From positions 2,720,001 through 2,784,000 of the forward strand of contig CBDBCF010000001.1 in assembly GCA_965202985.1 (NCBI GenBank): 64,000 nucleotides of DNA, read 5' to 3'. Source of the stretch: Longimicrobiales bacterium (GTDB taxonomy: Bacteria > Gemmatimonadota > Gemmatimonadetes > Longimicrobiales > Gaopeijiaceae). This document shows, piece after piece, positions 23,664 through 31,734 of this stretch (the first letter of the stretch is position 1; every line of letters begins with the position of its first letter). The translations under genes and the position numbers were made by a program. The notes beneath the pieces were generated by a model. The model was not told where the DNA came from. It saw only the letters and a list, made by a program, of their open reading frames with translations, and searched no databases.

Positions 23664-25046
23664 CTACGCCAGCCGCGCCAGCACACCCAAGAGCCGGTCC
23701 ACGTCGGCGCGGTTGTTGAACATGGCGACGGCTGCCCGCAACAGCCGGCCGTCTTCCTGAAAGGTGACCGCCACGCCGTCGTCCGCCAGCGCCTGGGCCA
23801 GCGTCTCGGGGTCCAGACCGTGGTAGAAGCTGACGATCGGCGACGGGTTGTCGGGCGGCGTGAACGGCTGCATTCCCAGCTCCGCGACGCCCTGCCGGAG
23901 CCGACCCGACAGCGTCTGCGTATGCGCGGCCACGCGCTCAATCCCGACCTGGTCCAGGAACCTCAAGGCGGCGTCCATCGCCGTGGCCGGCCCGAACGCC
24001 GCGTTGGCGTACTCGAACTTCTCGGCGTTCGACTTCAAGCGGTACCGATGCCCGGGCAGCGTCGCCTCAACCTGCCGGTGGCCATGTCGGTCGGGCGTCA
24101 TCCACTCCAAGTGCTCGCGTCGAACGTAGAACGGCGCGCAGCCGAAGTCCGCGAAGAGCCACTTGTAGCCGTTTCCGCAGGCGAAGTCGACCGCCTCGTT
24201 GTGCAAGTCCACGGGAAACGTGCCCCACGCCTGGATCGCGTCCGCGTACAGGTAGCCGCCGTGGCCGTGCACAAGCTCCGCCAAGGCGGGCAGATCGTGG
24301 CGAAACCCGTTGCGGTTCGACACCCACGCCACGCTCAGCAAGCGCGTCCGGCGGTCGGTGCGCGCGGCGAAGTCGTCCACCGTCACTACGCCGTCCGTAG
24401 CCGGCACGATGCGCAGCTCCACGCCCCGCCGCCGTTCCAGCTCGCGGTAGAGCACGAAGGTGGTCACGAAGTGCAGCTCGTCCACGACCACGTTGTCGCC
24501 CGGCTTCCAGTCCAGCGCGCCCGCGATCACGTTCTCCGCTTCGCTAGTGGCGTACAGGAACGCCGTTTCGTCCTCTTCCGCGCCGAAGATGCGCGCAAAC
24601 GACGCGCGGGCGTTCTCTTGCGCCGCCCGCCAGCTGCCCGTGTCGCGGCAGAGCGACTTCTGCTCGGCGTAGTCGCGCAGGGCGTCGCGCACGGCAACGG
24701 GGAGCGGTCCGACGGAGGCCGTGTTGAGGTACGCCAGCTCGTCGGTGACCGGAAACTGGGCCCGGACGCGCAAGGGATCGTCGTCGAGGTCCGGCGGGGC
24801 AGCGCCTGTCGCCGAAGCGCCGATCGCCGAAGCGCCGGCCGCGCCCGGAAGCCCAACCGCAGCGGGAAGCCTGACCGCAGCCGGCAGCCCCACCGCGCCC
24901 GGCAAGCTTGCCAACCCCGCTGCCGCAGTCGTCTTGAGAAAGGTGCGCCGATCGCGACGCCCGTCGTTGCGCGGGTTCGCGCGCTCGCGACGGTGCGGGT
25001 CGCGGCGCGGGGGCTTGCGTGCGTCGCTCTTGTCGTGACGGCTCAT
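23664..25046 (-). CDS. Aminotransferase class V (PLP-dependent) with Tat signal
   Basis: DRRTFLK twin-arginine motif, YLNTASVGP, ADAIQAWG, GYKWL (PLP lysine). Confidence 0.88.
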   Translation of the reverse strand: MSRHDKSDARKPPRRDPHRRERANPRNDGRRDRRTFLKTTAAAGLASLPGAVGLPAAVRLPAAVGLPGAAGASAIGASATGAAPPDLDDDPLRVRAQFPVTDELAYLNTASVGPLPVAVRDALRDYAEQKSLCRDTGSWRAAQENARASFARIFGAEEDETAFLYATSEAENVIAGALDWKPGDNVVVDELHFVTTFVLYRELERRRGVELRIVPATDGVVTVDDFAARTDRRTRLLSVAWVSNRNGFRHDLPALAELVHGHGGYLYADAIQAWGTFPVDLHNEAVDFACGNGYKWLFADFGCAPFYVRREHLEWMTPDRHGHRQVEATLPGHRYRLKSNAEKFEYANAAFGPATAMDAALRFLDQVGIERVAAHTQTLSGRLRQGVAELGMQPFTPPDNPSPIVSFYHGLDPETLAQALADDGVAVTFQEDGRLLRAAVAMFNNRADVDRLLGVLARLA

Positions 25047-26029
25047 TCGCTCCTCGTTTCTCGTTGGTTCCTCTGCAGGTCGCTCACCAGCTTCCGAAGC
25101 CGGCGACGAAGCTCGGTGGCGTCGTAGGCGGAGATCGCGCCGACCGCTCCAGCCGACGCCGGGCCTTCGACTTGCGCTTCCAGCTTACCGCCTGCCGCGT
25201 TCACCGCAACGTGCGCCGTGTGCCCTCGGTAGCGCATGGTGCCGGCGCCCTTCGCTCGGACCTTGGATTCCCAGCGGGCGAGCTTGGGGTCCGGCTTCGT
25301 CCAGGACTCGAATTCGGGTGGCAGAATGCGCATCAGCGCCTCCGGCGACATGTGGTGCACGTCATAGGTACGCTCCAGCTGATCCAAGACCCGCAACAGG
25401 TGTCTCATGCCGCCGGGGCGACCCATGAATCCCCTCTTCTGCCGCGTGCCGACCGTGTACATGCGCAAGATCAAAGGCACAAGTCCCTCCGAGTTGAAGA
25501 TCCGCTGCGATCCCATCACGCGGTCGGCGATCGCGCCCTCCCTCTCCGGCGCTTGGTCAAGCAGGAACGCCGCGTCTTCGCCGTGCGTCTCGTACAGCTG
25601 CCAGGCGGATCGCAGATAGTGGCGATGCCGGTTTCGGCGGGACTGCGGATCGCGAGGGTCGATCACGAACGTCTCGTCTCGGCGCGCCAGCCTTGGCGAC
25701 CCGTTCGCCGCGCGCACCATGTCTTCGAAATAGAAGATGCCCAGCCACGACCAGAACGACGCCCGGTCGGCGACTTGTCGCTTGATCGGCGCCAGTCTGG
25801 GCGAAAAGTACTCGCCCACTTCCCGCCGGGTCGCAAAGGACCTGCGCGCAACCTTCGGGGCGTCCCTGAACGGCCGACTGAACTCGTTGCTTGCCAGCAG
25901 CTCCTGCGGCGGCGTCAAGTTCTGCGAAGGCTTGGTCCGGACTGCGTCTAGGAATCTGCGGGCGCGGGCGATTCCCCGGGCCGTGAGTTCGCGCGCGTCG
26001 ACCGCCGTCGGCTCTCCCGACGCCGTCAC
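25043..26029 (-). CDS. Hypothetical protein with C-terminal HicB-like segment (module gene 4)
   Basis: GTGA overlap with the upstream gene and ATGA overlap with the downstream gene; globular, aromatic-rich core (FWSWLGIFYF, QLERTYD, ILPPEF); tail MRYRGHTAHV...DATELRRRL resembles HicB N-termini. Confidence 0.7.
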   Translation of the reverse strand: MTASGEPTAVDARELTARGIARARRFLDAVRTKPSQNLTPPQELLASNEFSRPFRDAPKVARRSFATRREVGEYFSPRLAPIKRQVADRASFWSWLGIFYFEDMVRAANGSPRLARRDETFVIDPRDPQSRRNRHRHYLRSAWQLYETHGEDAAFLLDQAPEREGAIADRVMGSQRIFNSEGLVPLILRMYTVGTRQKRGFMGRPGGMRHLLRVLDQLERTYDVHHMSPEALMRILPPEFESWTKPDPKLARWESKVRAKGAGTMRYRGHTAHVAVNAAGGKLEAQVEGPASAGAVGAISAYDATELRRRLRKLVSDLQRNQRETRSE

Positions 26030-26805
26030 CGCTTGGTCCTGCGGTACGATTCCAGCGCCCGCGCCTTCTTGCGCGCGAACGCCGCCACCACGTCCTCGAT
26101 CCATCGGTCGGCCCGCGCGATCTGATCCTCCTGCGCGTTATAGTCGACGACCGGCGGCTCCTGCTCGGGCATCAGGTCGCGCGCCAAGTCGAACCACGCC
26201 TTCCACCTGCCCTCGGCGTCGTCGGGGCGCTCGCGCTCCACCAGCAACGCCCGCTCGAGCACGGAGCGCAGCACCTGCGGCGCGACCAGCGCCCGAAAGG
26301 CGGGGTCGTTGCGCGCGGTCTCGCTCAGGCCCGGCATCCGGCTGTTGACGCGCAGCACCGCCATGTCGTCGCCCATGCCGAAGTCCAGGCGCCAGACCTC
26401 GCTCCCCAAGTCCGAGGCCACCAACGGCAAGATCGACTCCGCCGGCAGCCGGGGCGACAGCCTGTCCGCCAAGCCCAGCAGCCGGCCCGAGGCGCCCGCT
26501 TCCACGACCGCGACCCGGAACCTGCACGTCTCGGGCACGTCTCGAAGCACGCGGGCGGATTCGGGCAGGCCTCCGGGGCGGCCCACCGTGCCCCAGCTCC
26601 ACCTTTGGAAGGCGCTGCCGCGCCAAGCCTCGACCCGAAGGCGCGCGTCCGGCGGAAACCCGTAGCCGCCCAGGTCGAGCCGCAGGTCGAAGCAGTGGTC
26701 GCCGTCCGGCTCCGCGACCCTGTCGCGCTTCAGGCGCCGCAGCGTGACCACGGCGTGCGAACGCTGAATCCGCTTGCGCCCGGTGCTGTTGAAGTGACGG
26801 ATCAT
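26026..26805 (-). CDS. Hypothetical protein (module gene 3)
   Basis: MIRHFNSTGRKRI...; ATG 26805 overlaps the upstream stop; protein-like composition (LGSEVWRLDF, LVAPQVLRSVL). Confidence 0.75.
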   Translation of the reverse strand: MIRHFNSTGRKRIQRSHAVVTLRRLKRDRVAEPDGDHCFDLRLDLGGYGFPPDARLRVEAWRGSAFQRWSWGTVGRPGGLPESARVLRDVPETCRFRVAVVEAGASGRLLGLADRLSPRLPAESILPLVASDLGSEVWRLDFGMGDDMAVLRVNSRMPGLSETARNDPAFRALVAPQVLRSVLERALLVERERPDDAEGRWKAWFDLARDLMPEQEPPVVDYNAQEDQIARADRWIEDVVAAFARKKARALESYRRTKR

Positions 26806-28790
26806 CGTTCGTCCTGCCCGGTCTCCGACGACCCGACCTCCGCGATCTCCACCAGCAGGTCGCGTTCGTCGAAGCCTGTGACCTTGAAGGCGAAGGCGGG
26901 GCCGTTCACGCGCACGCGAAGCTCGTTGTCCGACAGCACTTCGTAGGTGCAGTTCGCGTGCTCCACCGCCAGCCGGCCGTCGTGCAGCGAAAAGTCGGGG
27001 CAGCCCGCCCGCAGTCCGCTGGCGAAGCGAGAAAAGGCGCTGCGGGCCGTGCCCCGGGCAACGTCGTACGCCATCCGAACCGTCCACGTGCCGCCAGCTG
27101 CGTTCCCATTCGGCCCAGGGTCGAGCGTGAAGCCGCCCGACACCGGCCTTGCTCGCAGGCTCGACCGGCCGCCGGGCCCCTCTCCGTTCGATTCGCCCGA
27201 GCTGGCGTCGGGAGCTGGCGCGGGGCGCGTGGTCGTGGCCGAACTGCCCTTCTTCTTGGAGGGGAACAGGTCCGCGAAGACGTCCCGCTGCTTCTCTTCG
27301 GGCCGCACCGCCAGCTCCTGCAAGATCCGCTGCGCCGCCCGCTGCGCCTCGCGCACCCGCACGGCGGCGGCCGGCCAGCCCTTCTTCCTGAGCCGAGGCG
27401 CGGTGGGACTCCACCGCTCGTGAGCGGGACCCTCGGCGTCGCGCAGCAAGTGCCCCAGCGGGTTGCGGCTGGGCACGAACGTCAGCGCCCGCGCCCGAAA
27501 GCCCTCGATGTAGTCCATGCCCGGGATGTGCAGGTGGCCGCGCACGAAGAAGTCCTGGCCTCTGGACAGGTTGTCGTCCTTCTCCAAGTACACGCGAAAG
27601 CGCGCAAGCACGCCGCCGACCTTGGTCGTCACGCGGAACGCCAAGCGGTGGCCCCTTTCGTAGCGCGCCCGAAGCTGCTGCGCCTCCAAGGGAGAGAGCG
27701 CCGACTTGTTGCGGTTGCCGTCGGCGTCCACATGCTCCCGCTCCGTCGCAAGCCCCCACCTGGCCAGCTCGATCGCGCGCGCCAGCGCAGCAGGCTCCTC
27801 TTCGCCCTTGCTCGGCGCGCTGCCGCACTGGTGCACCTCGGCCGATATCGTCCGGGCATCCACGACCCGCGTCCGTGCGCCCGCCACCGCAATCTCCACC
27901 ACGAGGTTGCCGGCCACGATCGGCCAGAAGTACTGCGTGACCACCGCCCATGCCAGCTTGCCCGGGTCGGTCAGCTCATTCTCGGGGTGGAGCACCACTA
28001 CCGACGTGCCGCTCTCGCTGTCGCGAAGCCCGAAGTCGTCCACCGCCTGCCCCACGAACGCCCCTGCGCCGTGCCGGGAGTCCAAGGGCATCGGCAGCCA
28101 CCTCTCGTCGGGTTCTTCCGAAGCCGCCGCGAAGTAGCCGTAGTGCGAGTACTTGTTGTCCCCCATCTTGTGCAACTTGAGCATCGCCTGGCCCATGAGA
28201 AGGAGCCGCTCCTCGCCCTGGCGGCGGGTCACGCCAACGAAGGCGTTCAGCCGGGACGCGTCGGGGAAGACCCACTTGCCCAGTCCCCACGAGCCGCCGG
28301 CGTCTTGTCCCTTGGGCGAAATGCCGACGCTTCGGAACAGGCCCCAGAAGTCGTTGCCCTTGGCTTCGGGCTCGTTCGCTTCGACGTCTCCGCGCAGACC
28401 CGTCGTGCCGAAGTCCTGCACGACCAGAAACGGCATGGGCCTGTCGAAGAGCTCCTTGCGGGCCTCGAGTTCCTTCTTGCGTGGGCCGCGGGCGTTCTCT
28501 GCGTCCACGACCGCTTGAAAGTGCGGGCGAAGGCCGTCCAGGTACGCCGCCGCGCGCGGGGCGTCCAGTGCGCATTCCTTGCCGCTGACAGAGAAGCGCA
28601 CGCGCACCGGTCCGGCGTCGCGCCGTCCGTCCTTGATCCGCGCGTCCAGCGAGTTCTGCACCGACTCGCGCACGAAGCGCTTGGGCAGGTCCGTGCTGAA
28701 GAACTCGCCTTGGACCGGGTTCTCGTTGATCTCCGATGGCGACATGGCCCGGAAGCGCCAGCGGGGTGTGCGCCAGTCCCGAGCGTTCAA
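26802..28790 (-). CDS. GHKL (Bergerat-fold) ATPase-domain protein with uncharacterised C-terminus (module gene 2)
   Basis: All four GHKL motifs in order: RESVQNSLDA, QDFGTTG, GGSWGLGK, GTSV; TTG 28790 overlaps the upstream stop. Confidence 0.8.
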   Translation of the reverse strand: MNARDWRTPRWRFRAMSPSEINENPVQGEFFSTDLPKRFVRESVQNSLDARIKDGRRDAGPVRVRFSVSGKECALDAPRAAAYLDGLRPHFQAVVDAENARGPRKKELEARKELFDRPMPFLVVQDFGTTGLRGDVEANEPEAKGNDFWGLFRSVGISPKGQDAGGSWGLGKWVFPDASRLNAFVGVTRRQGEERLLLMGQAMLKLHKMGDNKYSHYGYFAAASEEPDERWLPMPLDSRHGAGAFVGQAVDDFGLRDSESGTSVVVLHPENELTDPGKLAWAVVTQYFWPIVAGNLVVEIAVAGARTRVVDARTISAEVHQCGSAPSKGEEEPAALARAIELARWGLATEREHVDADGNRNKSALSPLEAQQLRARYERGHRLAFRVTTKVGGVLARFRVYLEKDDNLSRGQDFFVRGHLHIPGMDYIEGFRARALTFVPSRNPLGHLLRDAEGPAHERWSPTAPRLRKKGWPAAAVRVREAQRAAQRILQELAVRPEEKQRDVFADLFPSKKKGSSATTTRPAPAPDASSGESNGEGPGGRSSLRARPVSGGFTLDPGPNGNAAGGTWTVRMAYDVARGTARSAFSRFASGLRAGCPDFSLHDGRLAVEHANCTYEVLSDNELRVRVNGPAFAFKVTGFDERDLLVEIAEVGSSETGQDER

Positions 28791-30162
28791 GCGTCTTCGT
28801 CCTGGGCGGGAGTGCCGCCGGCGCCGTCGCCGCTCAACTCCAGGTGCGCGGTGTGGGCCGGCAGCACCGTCGTGAAGTAGGTGCGCGTCTGGTCGAACTC
28901 GAAGCGGGGCGGGGGCGACCCGTTCTCGGCCATGGCGCCGCGGATCTTGCCGAGACCCATGAACCGGCCTTCCGCCAGTCCCAGCTCCTTCAGGAACTCG
29001 CCGATGCGCCGGTTCCGCGCCGGCACGTCCGGCATCGACGCGCCCTCTTCCATATGCGCCGCCTCAACGCCGGGCACCGGTCCCGGATAGCTGCTGATCG
29101 TCATCCGGTCGTGGTAGACGTGGACCTTGATCGGGTCGGGCGCGTCCGGTTCGTAGCTCCGATGATACGCGGCGTTGGCCAGAGCCTCGCGCACGGCGAC
29201 GGCGGGCCAGCGCCTCGTGCGCCGGGCTCGGGGCGTCCCGGACCGCTTCTCGACGCGAACCTCCGACAATGCGTCCAGCAAGTCCAGGCACCGGCGAAGC
29301 TGGTCGGCCAAGCCTCCGCGAAACGTATGTTCCACCAGCAGGTCGCCCCCAGGGCCGTTCGGGAACTGGGCCACTTCGACGAGCGCGCCCCGAAACCACT
29401 CGGACGGATCGCGCGAGAAGAAGAGCAGCCCCACGTTGCGCGGCGTCTCGTGGTCGTTGGCCCGAGCCGTGATGCGCATCCGGCGATAGACCTCCCTGGC
29501 GTCCGGCTCCGTCCGCAGCTCGCTGTCCACGTCGCGCAGGAACTCCCGGACCAAGCCCTCGCGCAGGTCGTCCAGCTTTGCGCCCAGGGCGCGCCGGTCG
29601 TCCCACGGAACCCGAGCCGTCTGGCGGACCAGCGCCGGGAGCAGCCCGGCGGCCTCGGCGTCCACGGTTTCGGCCCCAGTCGGATCCAGTACCGGCGCCG
29701 GTCGCCGCGACCGCTCGGGCCGCCTGCCGCCTGCCGCCCGCCGGCGGCTTGCGACTCGCCTGTCGCCTGCCGCCCGCCCGGCGCGCGATGGGGCCTGGCC
29801 TCGCTGGCCGGCGCCCAGATCACGAGCACGTTTCGCCCGTCCACGACCTCGGGCGACACCACAGGCTGGTACACGGGATCGATGCGGTTGCACTGGCCCC
29901 GGATCCACTTCGCCGCCGCTTGCATCTCGCCGTCGGACAGCCCCACGGGCGGGAAGACGGCGCGCCCGTCCTCTTCGGCCACGCCCACCACCACGTAGCC
30001 GCCGTTCAGGTGCAGGTGGTCGTTGGCGAAGGCGCAGATCGTCCGAAGCACCTGGAACCCGGTCGTCTCGGGGCACCAGCGCGCCTTGAACTCCAGTCGC
30101 GCGGATTCGGCTCGGCGGCCGCGCAGCAGGGCTTCCACGTTGACGGGGAGGAGCGGGCTCAT
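28787..30162 (-). pseudogene. Schlafen/AlbA_2 + HATPase_c_4 (RecG C-terminal-like) protein, split by a 1-nt frameshift (module gene 1)
   Basis: The N-half (ESARLEFK, ICAFAND, GGYVVVGV, RYWIRLG) is in one frame and the C-half (AETVDA, VPWDDR, RNVGLLFF, VREALANAAYHRSY, RNRRIGEFLKELGLAEG) in another; one extra G in the run at 29674-29677 restores a single ORF. Confidence 0.8.
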
Positions 30163-30417
30163 GAGGCCGAATTCTGCCCCTTCGGGCGGGCGGCGGCAAC
30201 AGCCTGGCATCGGTGCCCGGCAACGGCCGGCAGCCGCGTTCCAGCAACCGGCGATGCAAGCGCCCAGCCACGGTCGATGCCCGAGCACAGCAAAAACCGT
30301 TTGGCGGCCCCAGCGGTGCTTCCGTATCTTCTTGGCCCTCGGCGCCGAAGCGCAGCCCTCTCCGCATCAAGCGGCCAGCTCTCTCGCGCCGAGCACACGC
30401 CCTAGGAGGCGCAGCCC

Positions 30418-31734
30418 TTGCAAGCTCCCGAAACAGTGCAATCTGCCGAGCCCCTGCAGTCTGCCGAAACCTTGCAGTCTCCCGAAGCCGGCATCGGCCT
30501 GGTGGCGGACCTTCAGGGCTGGTGGAACGCCGTCGTCGATTACAGCGTGCCCAAGCTGCTGCCGACGGCGGCGATCCTGGTCGTCGCCTTTGTGGTTCGG
30601 TTCGTGGTGCTGAGGGCGCTGAACCGGATCGAGAAGCGCTGGGTGGCCCGCACCGAGACCGAGGTGGACGACAAGGTCCTCCAGTCGGTGCGCAAGGTGC
30701 TGCGTCTGTCGGTCGCGGCGTGGGTTCTGTGGTCGCTGGCCTACCAATGGTTCCCATCGGCGGTGGCCGGCGTGGCGCCTCGGCCTGCGCAGTGGATCGC
30801 CGCCGTCTGGATCGCCCTGGTCTTCGTGCCCGTCGGCAAGCTGGTGGGCGACGTGCTGGCCGTGATCAGCTCCCGCGTGGTCGAGCGCACCGACACGAGC
30901 CTGGACGAGACGGCGCTGCCCCTGCTGACCCGCTTCGTGCGGTTCATCTTGGTGGCCTTGGGCGTGGTGCTGGCGCTGGACCGGCTGGGCGTGAACATCG
31001 CGCCGTTGCTGGCCGGCGCCGGGGTCGGGGGACTGGCCGTGGGCTTGGCGGCCAAGGACTCCCTGTCGAACCTGATCGCCGGCGTGCTGCTCATCTTGGA
31101 CCGCCCGTTCAAGGTCGGCGACCGGATCGAGCTGTGGAGCGCCCCCCGGGAAACCGGCACATGGGGCGACGTGATCGAGATCGGCTTGCGCGCCACCCAC
31201 ATCCGCAACCCCGACAACCTGGTCGTGATCGTCCCCAACAACGAGATCATGCAGCGCGACATCGTGAACTACACGGCCCTGGGGACCGACATCCGGCTTC
31301 GCATTCCCTTCTCGGTGGCCTACGAGTCCGAGCTGGTGAAGGCCAAGAACATCCTTGTTGGGGTCACGGGCGAAGTGGAGGGCGTGAAGCCCGTGCCGGC
31401 GCCCGTCGTCATCGTGCGCGGCGGCGGTCCGTCCGAGGTGAACCTCGAGCTTCGCGTCTGGATTCTGGACGCCCGCCAGCGCCGCCGCATCGCCGACGAG
31501 ATCACCGAGAAGGCGTTTCTGGCGTTCGGCGACGCGGGCGTGCACATTCCCTATCCCAGGCGCGAGTTGTTCATCCGTCGCGAGGAGGAAGCGGCGCGCG
31601 ACGAAGAAGCCGCGGTGCGCGACAAGGCTGGAGCCCGCGGGAGGGCCGCTCCACGCGAAGAGGCCGCTGCACGCGAGAAAACGGCGGCGCGCGAGGAAGC
31701 AGCGGCACGCTCGGAACCGGCGGCTTCGGGCTGA
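30418..31734 (+). CDS. mscS: Small-conductance mechanosensitive channel family protein
   Basis: LLAGAGVGGLAVGLAAKD, DRPFKVGD, GDVIEIGLRAT, VPNN, IPYPRREL; AGGAGG before TTG 30418. Confidence 0.92.
   Translation: MQAPETVQSAEPLQSAETLQSPEAGIGLVADLQGWWNAVVDYSVPKLLPTAAILVVAFVVRFVVLRALNRIEKRWVARTETEVDDKVLQSVRKVLRLSVAAWVLWSLAYQWFPSAVAGVAPRPAQWIAAVWIALVFVPVGKLVGDVLAVISSRVVERTDTSLDETALPLLTRFVRFILVALGVVLALDRLGVNIAPLLAGAGVGGLAVGLAAKDSLSNLIAGVLLILDRPFKVGDRIELWSAPRETGTWGDVIEIGLRATHIRNPDNLVVIVPNNEIMQRDIVNYTALGTDIRLRIPFSVAYESELVKAKNILVGVTGEVEGVKPVPAPVVIVRGGGPSEVNLELRVWILDARQRRRIADEITEKAFLAFGDAGVHIPYPRRELFIRREEEAARDEEAAVRDKAGARGRAAPREEAAAREKTAAREEAAARSEPAASG

Follow-up and report, generated by a model that had tools for sequence, protein, structure and literature searches.

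Four minus-strand genes, joined by 4-nt start/stop overlaps, lie between positions 25043 and 30162 of the window, i.e. of the whole 64,000-nt stretch of DNA analysed here. Do these genes form a single defence system? An earlier note had taken them for a four-gene module, with the Schlafen-type gene 1 as a possible effector or regulator. The features of the locus are as follows:

30418..31734, plus strand: flank, MscS channel (PF00924); outside the cassette
29674..30162, minus strand: gene 1, 5' part; AlbA_2 (Schlafen) nuclease domain (PF04326, E 1.5e-11); accessory, outside the conserved trio
29674..29677, plus strand: frameshift site of gene 1; run of four C, five C in two closely related strains
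28787..29674, minus strand: gene 1, 3' part in the other frame; HATPase_c_4, GHKL-type (PF13749, E 3.9e-12)
26802..28790, minus strand: gene 2 (A subunit); GHKL ATPase, S5 transducer, disordered linker and C-terminal β-sandwich
26026..26805, minus strand: gene 3 (B subunit); Ig/FN3-like β-sandwich, short β segment and helical C-terminal domain
25301..26029, minus strand: gene 4 core (C subunit, ~243 aa); putative remote DUF6339/PDC-M33C-like protein
25043..25300, minus strand: optional C-terminal tail of gene 4; weak resemblance to the HicB N-terminal domain
23664..25046, minus strand: flank, TAT-signal aminotransferase class V (PF00266, E 5.7e-40); outside the cassette

Genes 2, 3 and 4 are open reading frames of 662, 259 and 328 aa, respectively. 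The four overlaps reported earlier, TTGA (28787–28790), ATGA (26802–26805), GTGA (26026–26029) and ATGA (25043–25046), are all present in the sequence. The last of these had been read as coupling into a downstream housekeeping run. It is probably incidental, since in three congeners the aminotransferase gene is located 3' of a TRAP operon with no cassette gene there. In these congeners (G001–G003) it adjoins mscS without the cassette; none of them offers a clean empty site, as the flanking genes are adjacent there but in a different order. We rejected the aminotransferase as a sulfur-modification gene, because it carries a TAT signal and is a conserved gene of the congeners. Probes for desulfurase, PP-loop and GmrSD genes gave no match in 160 family loci. 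The cassette in the window shows no GC anomaly, no integrase or repeats beside it and no flanking direct repeats, and its trio has no defence neighbours besides gene 1.

The conserved unit comprises three genes (genes 2–4), not four. They occur together and in fixed order at 77 of 80 GTDB loci from many phyla, archaea included, and at 47 of 50 metagenome loci with sufficient room. With gene 3 as the anchor, gene 2 is found upstream at 73 of 74 loci with room and gene 4 downstream at 75 of 75; with gene 2 as the anchor, gene 3 is present at 58 of 62 loci and both partners at 47 of 50. The distribution of the trio is patchy, and all four genomes of this genus keep it, each at a different place. 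The neighbourhood survey proposed in the earlier note thus came out in its favour as far as genes 2–4 are concerned.

Gene 1 behaves differently. It is located upstream of the trio at none of the 160 distant loci (two loci have one nearby, both downstream) and at one of three congener loci, being missing at the other two. An uninterrupted orthologue is found directly upstream of the trio in congener G003, and a 55% identical paralogue (C2:172693-171425) lies beside other restriction-modification (R-M)-type genes in the window's own genome. In the window, gene 1 is not the single open gene it had been taken for. The AlbA_2 domain is read from 30162 and HATPase_c_4 in the frame ending at 28787, with the switch at the C-run 29674–29677. 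The Ex4(E/D)xK catalytic motif, as defined in the accessible part of PMC13056530, is intact in the translation (E19-x4-E24-x-K26). Sequencing run X1 shows no differences and no gaps relative to the window over 25733–30048 at a depth of 22, and in runs X3 and X5, which belong to a different study, the C-run is one C longer, which restores a single frame. The frameshift is therefore a real, strain-level break. A random sequencing error is disfavoured by the agreement with X1, although X1 may be the sample from which the window itself was derived.

Because gene 1 is absent upstream at all distant loci, mostly missing in the congeners and frameshifted here, we rejected a four-gene system with a Schlafen effector; its paralogue elsewhere further weakens the idea of an effector or regulator of the trio. 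As part of our main reading, and with the probability given below for that reading as a whole, gene 1 would be a Schlafen-type passenger in its own right, which came to the location of the trio within this genus and was recently disrupted in the strain of the window. Two of seven constructs defended in the accessible part of PMC13056530; these were DUF262 and Ig-like fusions and not HisKinase fusions, so that defence by the architecture of gene 1 alone is unsupported there.

The A subunit, gene 2, is a complete GHKL+S5 ATPase module (residues ~17–499) with conserved catalytic motifs. The four GHKL motifs noted earlier (E42xxxN46xxD49A, D126xGxxG131, G166SWGLG171K and G261T) are near-invariant in 65 distant homologues. 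Arg417 and the motif E453xxxH457xxW460 are invariant, with Glu453 and His457 present in 65 of 65 sequences. The TTG start codon is backed by the conserved residues Trp11 (96%) and Phe13 (98%), which lie upstream of the first ATG. In the AlphaFold2 model (mean pLDDT 83.5) a disordered linker (residues ~510–542) is predicted to lead to a C-terminal β-sandwich (residues ~540–654). The best Foldseek match of this model is topoisomerase VI-B (E 2.4e-8). A structure comparison (VIA) resulted in Z 14.2 for GRP94 (r.m.s.d. 4.6, 289 aligned), Z 13.7 for SMCHD1 (r.m.s.d. 4.0, 301 aligned) and Z 12.8 for MutL; the top score thus belongs to a chaperone, level with SMCHD1.

The model of the B subunit, gene 3 (pLDDT 92.7), starts with an invariant RxNxTGR motif. 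Its Ig/FN3-like sandwich and helical C-terminal domain gave nothing in Foldseek at E 0.001, so the Foldseek search suggested in the earlier note was informative for gene 2 and not for gene 3. The structure comparison (VIA) reached a best Z of 7.8 with generic sandwiches only and barely covered the helical half. Gene 3 is likely an adaptor. Its family comprises 1,991 clusters at 50% identity, with no relatives in the viral contigs searched and none in plasmids by tblastn. One diverged trio was observed on a 1.3-Mb Rhizobium plasmid.

The C subunit, gene 4, contains the conserved residues W93-x-W95, R136-H137, G206, Q217, D223 and P237-x-E239 in its core. Sequence-level searches of Pfam, PDB sequences and the Atlas revealed no known nuclease motif or fold, and the Pfam DUF6339 model matched neither the window protein nor any of 62 family members. 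For one close homologue a PF19866 label had been precomputed, but a Pfam search did not reproduce it. Matches in the ESM Atlas were inconsistent (DUF6138 at 0.95 with low recognition, methyltransferases at 0.77) and were set aside. From its sequence we regard the core as a candidate DNA-reading or DNA-cleaving subunit. Judged by its homologues, the tail is optional and swappable: 55 of 120 close homologues carry it, 19 have another tail and 28 are at most 285 aa long. A profile of the tail places HicB proteins near the top, yet only at E 0.8–1.1, and neither Pfam nor BLASTP gave a match. For genes 2–4 altogether, searches of NCBIfam, PHROGs, Pfam and PDB sequences returned nothing.

A complex prediction for genes 3 and 4 scored 0.55, against 0.00 for the best control. 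Of 157 solved pairs, 116 attained the mark, as did 2 of 215 mismatched pairs; among those that attained it, only 18 of the solved pairs, but both mismatches, had scores of at most 0.60. Separate runs share at least 70% of the contacts, with a partner pLDDT of at least 85. The prediction lends weak support to binding between the two proteins. Of the ATP-driven complex of genes 2–4 suggested in the earlier note, the co-occurrence supports the conserved unit, and this prediction, weakly, the contact between genes 3 and 4; ATP would be what drives it.

Does the trio belong to a named system? The PADLOC model PDC-M33A (PDLC04582) matches gene 2 with E 1e-18, but only over residues 19–301, the N-terminal half. 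Distant trio members reach E 4e-19 to 8e-33 and a true member 1e-99 (raw E-values, irrespective of the PADLOC cut-offs). PDC-M33B (PDLC04583) gave no match in the window (E up to 0.1) or at eight of eight distant loci (E up to 0.01), and PDC-M33C (PDLC04584-87)/DUF6339 gave none in the window or at eight distant loci. The PADLOC check named in the earlier note thus gave a weak hit for gene 2 and none for genes 3 and 4; since the B and C subunits miss its models, PADLOC does not detect the family as a system. A gene 3 profile finds PDC-M33B-like proteins remotely (E 3.4e-4) and a gene 4 profile finds DUF6339 proteins (E 1.1e-4 over 159 columns). These links are weak, with probabilities of 38% and 57%; the controls, in which profiles were reversed or crossed, lie at E 0.22–0.62. 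They weaken in mixed-alignment comparisons (E 0.0014 and 0.045) and vanish against sponge-clade sisters (E 0.095 and 0.35) and against single sequences. The trio ATPases form a clade apart from those of PDC-M33 (bipartition support 0.999). Together, the weak match of gene 2 and the distant profile similarity of genes 3 and 4 place the trio, as far as sequence comparison reaches, as a deep, remote sister clade of the candidate anti-phage system PDC-M33. The statement that no named system matches was thus overstated, although the B and C models are indeed missed.

Genes for DNA modification recur beside the trio. A C5-methylase is located within 3.5 kb at 18 of 80 and 29 of 80 loci of two 80-locus sets, far above background, and Vsr at 12 of 80 and 20 of 80 loci of the same sets. 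Among the first 40 GTDB loci, nine have a C5-methylase against ~0.06 expected, a ~150-fold excess of this neighbour class; the expectation is based on 32 match rows in ~181 Mb of the same genomes and counts related loci as independent. Other neighbours seen are type I, III and IIG R-M genes, EcoRII, MvaI/BcnI, HNH, DUF4268, WYL, toxin-antitoxin pairs and Cas5. Enrichment beside R-M genes, a further point raised earlier, is therefore observed. The methylase is absent at 28 of 39 GTDB and 10 of 19 metagenome loci with at least 3 kb on both sides, as well as at the window copy, and many copies have housekeeping neighbours only.

Based on these results we propose, with a probability of roughly 60%, that the three products of genes 2–4 make up a machine of the paraMORC2/PDC-M33 type, which is mobile and would act on DNA in restriction-like defence. 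The A subunit would dimerise on ATP and close as a clamp on DNA, as MutL, topoisomerase VI-B and MORC do. Its C-terminal β-sandwich may dock the β-sandwich of B, the helical part of which would hold C. The DUF6339-like C subunit, with its conserved Arg-His, Gln, Asp and Glu residues, would read and then cut or block invading DNA that lacks the modification mark or differs in it. The ancestral partner may have been Dcm (with or without Vsr) providing the self-mark. Many copies, including that of the window, would have lost the linked methylase, so that marks would be written elsewhere or phage DNA recognised directly. A possible, quite tentative extension is that A-B-C is a mark-agnostic, ATP-driven DNA-scanning and restriction engine that uses either 5mC (Dcm) or, in sister clades, a sulfur mark (PP-loop with or without desulfurase), the largest branch of the trio's own clade having no linked writer and C being an unrecognised nuclease or modification reader. 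Sister trios, also in the same genome, are located 3' of sulfur-type (PP-loop/desulfurase) genes, with a PP-loop gene at 14 of 14 loci; if the extension is true, one sponge-associated genome carries three versions side by side.

The same neighbours would also suit a trio that assists a DNA-modification system instead of restricting DNA for it. As a clamp resembling MutL, it would load or direct the methylase, Vsr or sulfur writer, or would repair T:G mismatches arising from 5mC, with methylase-free copies orphaned or serving unlinked modifiers. No neighbours other than Dcm and Vsr are recurrent, MutL and Vsr cooperate in very short patch repair (accessible text of Iyer et al., PMC2292703), the PP-loop gene precedes every sister trio examined, and the window's genome has six C5-methylase matches elsewhere. 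We nevertheless consider this rather unlikely. A Dcm-free clade (16 sampled tips, some on short contigs; support 0.94) retains all three genes with intact motifs, and a search of the 40 host genomes at E 1e-20 left 22 without any C5-methylase match; this count includes incomplete MAGs, and its cut-off missed a divergent methylase in L027. Some Dcm-linked loci own an endonuclease (MvaI/BcnI, EcoRII), which is compatible with both readings.

Closest to the idea of the earlier note is abortive infection by protein sensing, in which the β-sandwiches would sense a phage protein, the Hsp90-like ATPase would relay the signal and an effector (the gene 1 Schlafen tRNase or gene 4) would kill the cell. 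In pSlfn5 the phage is sensed by an Ig-like domain (accessible part of PMC13056530), the translation of genes 1 and 2 is coupled in the window, G003 has gene 1 directly upstream, and the tail of gene 4 is swappable and weakly HicB-like. This reading is decidedly unlikely, given that gene 1 is upstream at none of the distant loci, missing at two of three congener loci and broken here beside an intact trio, that passengers of the Schlatpase type are very frequent (60,692 of 103,533 SLFN proteins in the accessible text of bioRxiv 10.64898/2026.05.29.728809, from which the name is taken), and that the methylase association points to DNA. Least probable, and in our view very improbable, is a mobile cassette without a role in defence, either selfish or carried for DNA maintenance, that lies near R-M genes only because both insert at the same hot spots. 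The copies among housekeeping genes and the retention in all four genomes of the genus would agree with such cargo. Against it stand the ~150-fold excess of one specific neighbour class, the lack of an integrase or repeats flanking the window's copy and the kinship with PDC-M33, which belongs to a set of predictions that started from genes lying within BREX, DISARM and type I R-M systems (accessible text of Payne et al., bioRxiv 10.1101/2024.01.29.577857).

The trio family is a large, widespread, ATPase-centred candidate cassette, whereas the gene 1 portion of the locus is ordinary. Should the trio prove to be defensive, no member of the paraMORC2/PDC-M33 group would have been tested before it, DUF6339 would gain a function, and the 2008 proposal that prokaryotic MORC-like ATPases serve as DNA clamps in restriction would be put to a direct test. 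Its methylase-linked, sulfur-linked and unlinked versions form a natural comparison set. A literature search by name, in which subscription papers were thinly covered, returned nothing on PDC-M33 or DUF6339 and only Iyer 2008 on paraMORC2. PDC-M33 is named neither in the abstract nor in the main-text section on PDCs of Payne et al., and a term search of the accessible text of Rakesh 2024 (PMC10853773) gave no mention of GHKL.

Among known systems, gene 1 resembles the Schlatpases (pSlfn-HisKinase), in their accessible description, as a PF04326 + PF13749 fusion with the Ex4ExK motif; its two domains are in two frames here and in one frame in G003, X3 and X5. Gene 2, as modelled, shares the GHKL+S5 ATP-gated dimer module of MutL, topoisomerase VI-B, MORC/SMCHD1 and Hsp90. 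The earlier remark that it lacks known C-terminal domains holds for the nuclease/dimerisation domain of MutL and the C-domain of Hsp90; an S5 transducer and a C-terminal β-sandwich are nonetheless present. In contrast to topoisomerase VI-B, the trio has no topoisomerase VI-A partner, and in contrast to Tiamat, as described in the accessible text, gene 2 has the β-sandwich tail instead of a DUF3684 or PD-(D/E)xK domain. PDC-M33 shares the order of a GHKL ATPase (~630 aa), a ~260–290 aa protein and a ~250 aa DUF6339-type protein; the trio has its A, B and C genes in the same order, co-oriented and coupled, each of a size similar to its counterpart in PDC-M33. Dcm and Vsr are frequent neighbours in both families, but most trio copies have no methylase. 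Iyer, Abhiman and Aravind (2008, PMC2292703) defined the paraMORC2 group by two features, an ExxxH motif within S5 and a genomic context of the R-M type; in the accessible text the group is mainly found in cyanobacteria and Gram-positives in operons with SFII helicases and endonucleases. Instead of a recurrent helicase, the trio has two fixed partner genes, which that text does not describe. The sporadic bacterial and archaeal spread, the GHKL and S5 domains with all four GHKL motifs and the ExxxH near the end of S5 are shared. DNA methylase and Vsr neighbours, known from paraMORC2, accompany the trio at a minority of loci and not here. Matched to this description rather than to the alignment of Iyer 2008, gene 2 fits paraMORC2.

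Genes 2–4 of the module (A, B and C, referred to here as the trio) form a conserved unit. In a gene 3-anchored set with one motif pattern (the best 80 of 111 GTDB loci, L063 and L065 being seemingly identical), the complete trio was found in 77 of 80 loci; gene 2 lies upstream of gene 3 in 73/74 and gene 4 downstream in 75/75 loci with room. Of 388 metagenome loci anchored on gene 2, the 80 best were kept; there gene 3 follows in 58/62 and genes 3 and 4 together in 47/50. The suggested co-occurrence of genes 2–4 is thus borne out. The earlier note had, however, described a four-gene unit, and gene 1 lies upstream of the trio in 0 of 160 distant loci. All four claimed 4-nt start/stop overlaps (28787–28790, 26802–26805, 26026–26029 and 25043–25046) were confirmed.

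Among the hosts are Planctomycetota, Proteobacteria, Bacteroidota, Nitrospirota and Chloroflexota, as well as several archaea, and gene 3 forms 1,991 clusters when grouped at 50% identity. The labels on close homologues read Candidatus Palauibacter or Gemmatimonadales, and several of the runs containing matching sequence are sponge metagenomes. The trio is present in all four genomes of the host genus, with different neighbours in each, and in none of 57 other sampled relatives. In the three congeners the flanking mscS and aminotransferase-V genes are adjacent in the other order, with no cassette gene there. Relative to the TRAP operon their order in the window (23664–31734) is swapped, and the cassette sits at this rearrangement point. 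The aminotransferase signal region (24809–24823) carries a 15-nt in-frame deletion in sequencing runs X3 and X5. An unannotated gene of about 220 residues lies upstream of gene 2 in L011, L027, L034, L077 and L082 (mostly Planctomycetota). In two database proteins (P0384, P0462) an N-terminal piece of gene 2 is apparently joined to gene 3, probably via internal deletions.

Genes 2–4 each read through uninterrupted (662, 259 and 328 residues), whereas gene 1 is split over two frames: the one starting at 30162 matches AlbA_2 (E 1.5e-11), the one ending at 28787 HATPase_c_4 (E 3.9e-12). Contigs of run X1, possibly the source of the window and not independent of it, match 25733–30048 without gaps at depth 22. 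X3 and X5, both from another study, contain one extra C in the run at 29674–29677; X3 contigs span all 7 kb and differ by 10 substitutions. Because of this difference between the runs, the frame break is a strain-level feature. By its two domains, which lie in separate frames here, gene 1 is a probable Schlatpase as named in bioRxiv 10.64898/2026.05.29.728809, and its Ex4ExK motif is that given in PMC13056530. Its relatives in the congeners are located upstream of the trio in one and missing in two; a Schlatpase lies near the trio, but downstream, in 2 of 160 distant loci. Gene 1 is a common defence passenger. An uninterrupted paralogue (55%; L008) is found on contig C2 of the same genome (171425–172693), directly behind two genes, one for an SNF2 helicase and one for a type IIG REase-MTase, inside a larger defence island. 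A 22-nt direct repeat within gene 1 (29721–29778; 95%, spacing 36) coincides with an insert of ~22 residues missing from the G003 congener's orthologue and the C2 paralogue.

The model of gene 2 (pLDDT 83.5) comprises a GHKL domain and an S5 transducer. Residues 17–499 superimpose on GRP94 (Z 14.2, r.m.s.d. 4.6, 289 aligned) and SMCHD1 (Z 13.7, r.m.s.d. 4.0, 301 aligned), with further matches to topo VI-B, MutL and MORC3. A disordered linker after S5 leads to a β-sandwich (540–654; generic matches, Z ≤5.9). N46, D49, D126, G131, G166-x-W-G-x-G-K172, G261, R417, E453, H457 and W460 are invariant in 65 distant sequences and E42 is 98% conserved; because of this motif conservation, gene 2 very likely encodes an active ATPase.

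In the model of gene 3 (pLDDT 92.7) a sandwich of Ig/FN3-like type makes up the N-terminal part (Z no higher than 7.8, non-specific) and is followed by a helical C-domain. Gene 4 has a core of 243 residues with conserved W93, W95, R136, H137, G206, Q217, D223, P237 and E239; its optional C-terminal tail may weakly resemble HicB. A second, unnamed tail of ~70 residues is fused in 19 of 120 close homologues (P0326–P0363), and one homologue has an added DUF4268. For the ATP-driven complex of genes 2–4 put forward in the earlier note, modelling lends weak support to the gene 3–gene 4 pair, with a score of 0.55 (best control 0.00) in a band that only 18/157 solved pairs reach and that holds both mismatched pairs that passed (of 215). 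At least 70% of the contacts agree between runs, with partner pLDDT of at least 85.

Only two neighbours of the trio recur, a C5 cytosine methylase and Vsr, which lie within 3.5 kb in 18/80 and 12/80 of the gene 3-anchored GTDB loci kept and in 29/80 and 20/80 of the gene 2-anchored metagenome loci kept. A methylase occurs in 9 of the first 40 GTDB loci, with ~0.06 expected (32 match rows in ~181 Mb of the same genomes, a sum of rounded sizes), an excess inflated by related genomes. Other R-M, HNH, WYL, TA and CRISPR genes occur singly; the scan of nearest neighbours covered slightly fewer than 191, with each cluster represented once. Among well-flanked loci 28/39 (GTDB) and 10/19 (metagenome) are methylase-free, 22 of 40 host genomes (incomplete MAGs, one divergent copy missed) gave no C5-methylase at E 1e-20, and a Dcm-free clade (16 sampled tips, support 0.94) is nested among Dcm-bearing lineages. 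These observations count against a strict trio–methylase link. The window has no methylase near the trio; its genome has six C5-methylase matches elsewhere.

The same genome contains two sister trios, each preceded by a PP-loop gene.

Sister GHKL–B–C trios on contig C1
1751638–1756435: second sister trio (L115/L218); PP-loop gene, no adjacent desulfurase; Fic gene downstream
1953686–1959719: sister trio (L116/L217); PP-loop gene and DndA/SspA-like cysteine desulfurase upstream; GmrSD-family gene ~3.5 kb downstream

Sister loci in the phylum sample have the PP-loop gene in 14/14 cases, the desulfurase in 6 and GmrSD in 4; the same probes matched 0/160 loci of the trio's own family. The PP-loop gene resembles SspD (SspD/DndC-like) in a weak, short match (E 1e-8 to 3e-6). 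L116/L217 is possibly a sulfur-mark version of the system.

Co-occurrence, folds and neighbour counts are observations; beyond them we propose a mechanism of defence, with a probability of about 0.6 for the mechanism as a whole. A would act as a dimeric DNA clamp gated by ATP, B as an adaptor joined through the two β-sandwiches, and C would read and then cut or block foreign DNA, a modification mark being the ancestral self/non-self cue. That the trio is instead a clamp assisting DNA modification or repair by Vsr would suit the recurrent neighbours but not the methylase-free loci and hosts, and seems rather unlikely. Protein-sensing abortive infection together with gene 1 would draw on the overlap of genes 1 and 2; given next to the 0/160 count, we regard it as quite improbable. 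Hardly any weight goes to non-defence cargo, a reading that suits the retention of the trio in all four genomes of the genus and against which the methylase excess counts.

As to named systems, the PADLOC phage-defence candidate PDC-M33 consists of three models, A, B and C, the true C proteins being DUF6339. PDC-M33A matches the N-terminal half of gene 2 (E 1e-18); in the window, as in 8 distant loci, the B and C models match neither gene 3 nor gene 4. Profile–profile comparison used six proteins of type B and six of type C, picked by HMM match or synteny, and gave E 3.4e-4 for gene 3 against B (probability 38%, 100 columns) and 1.1e-4 for gene 4 against C (probability 57%, 159 columns). In the controls E was 0.61 and 0.22 with reversed profiles and 0.62 and 0.54 with the pairs crossed. 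Sponge-clade sisters alone yielded no significant link (E 0.095, 0.35). A FastTree phylogeny (first 500 residues; all Dcm-linked and every second other member) splits the trio's family from PDC-M33 and its sisters with support 0.999. A PDC-M33-like trio also follows an AIPR gene on the mobilisable Enterococcus plasmid NZ_CP102071.1 (L090). The literature searched, with the Payne supplements outside it, held no paper on PDC-M33 or DUF6339, and Iyer et al. 2008 alone on paraMORC2. That paper (PMC2292703) takes an ExxxH motif towards the end of S5, together with R-M neighbourhoods, as the marks of paraMORC2. Gene 2 has the motif, and Dcm or Vsr neighbours occur in a minority of the family's loci, with none at this copy. 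We read the trio, from its sequences, as a probable deep sister clade of PDC-M33 that is a non-member by the models. PDC-M33 itself is catalogued as a predicted system.
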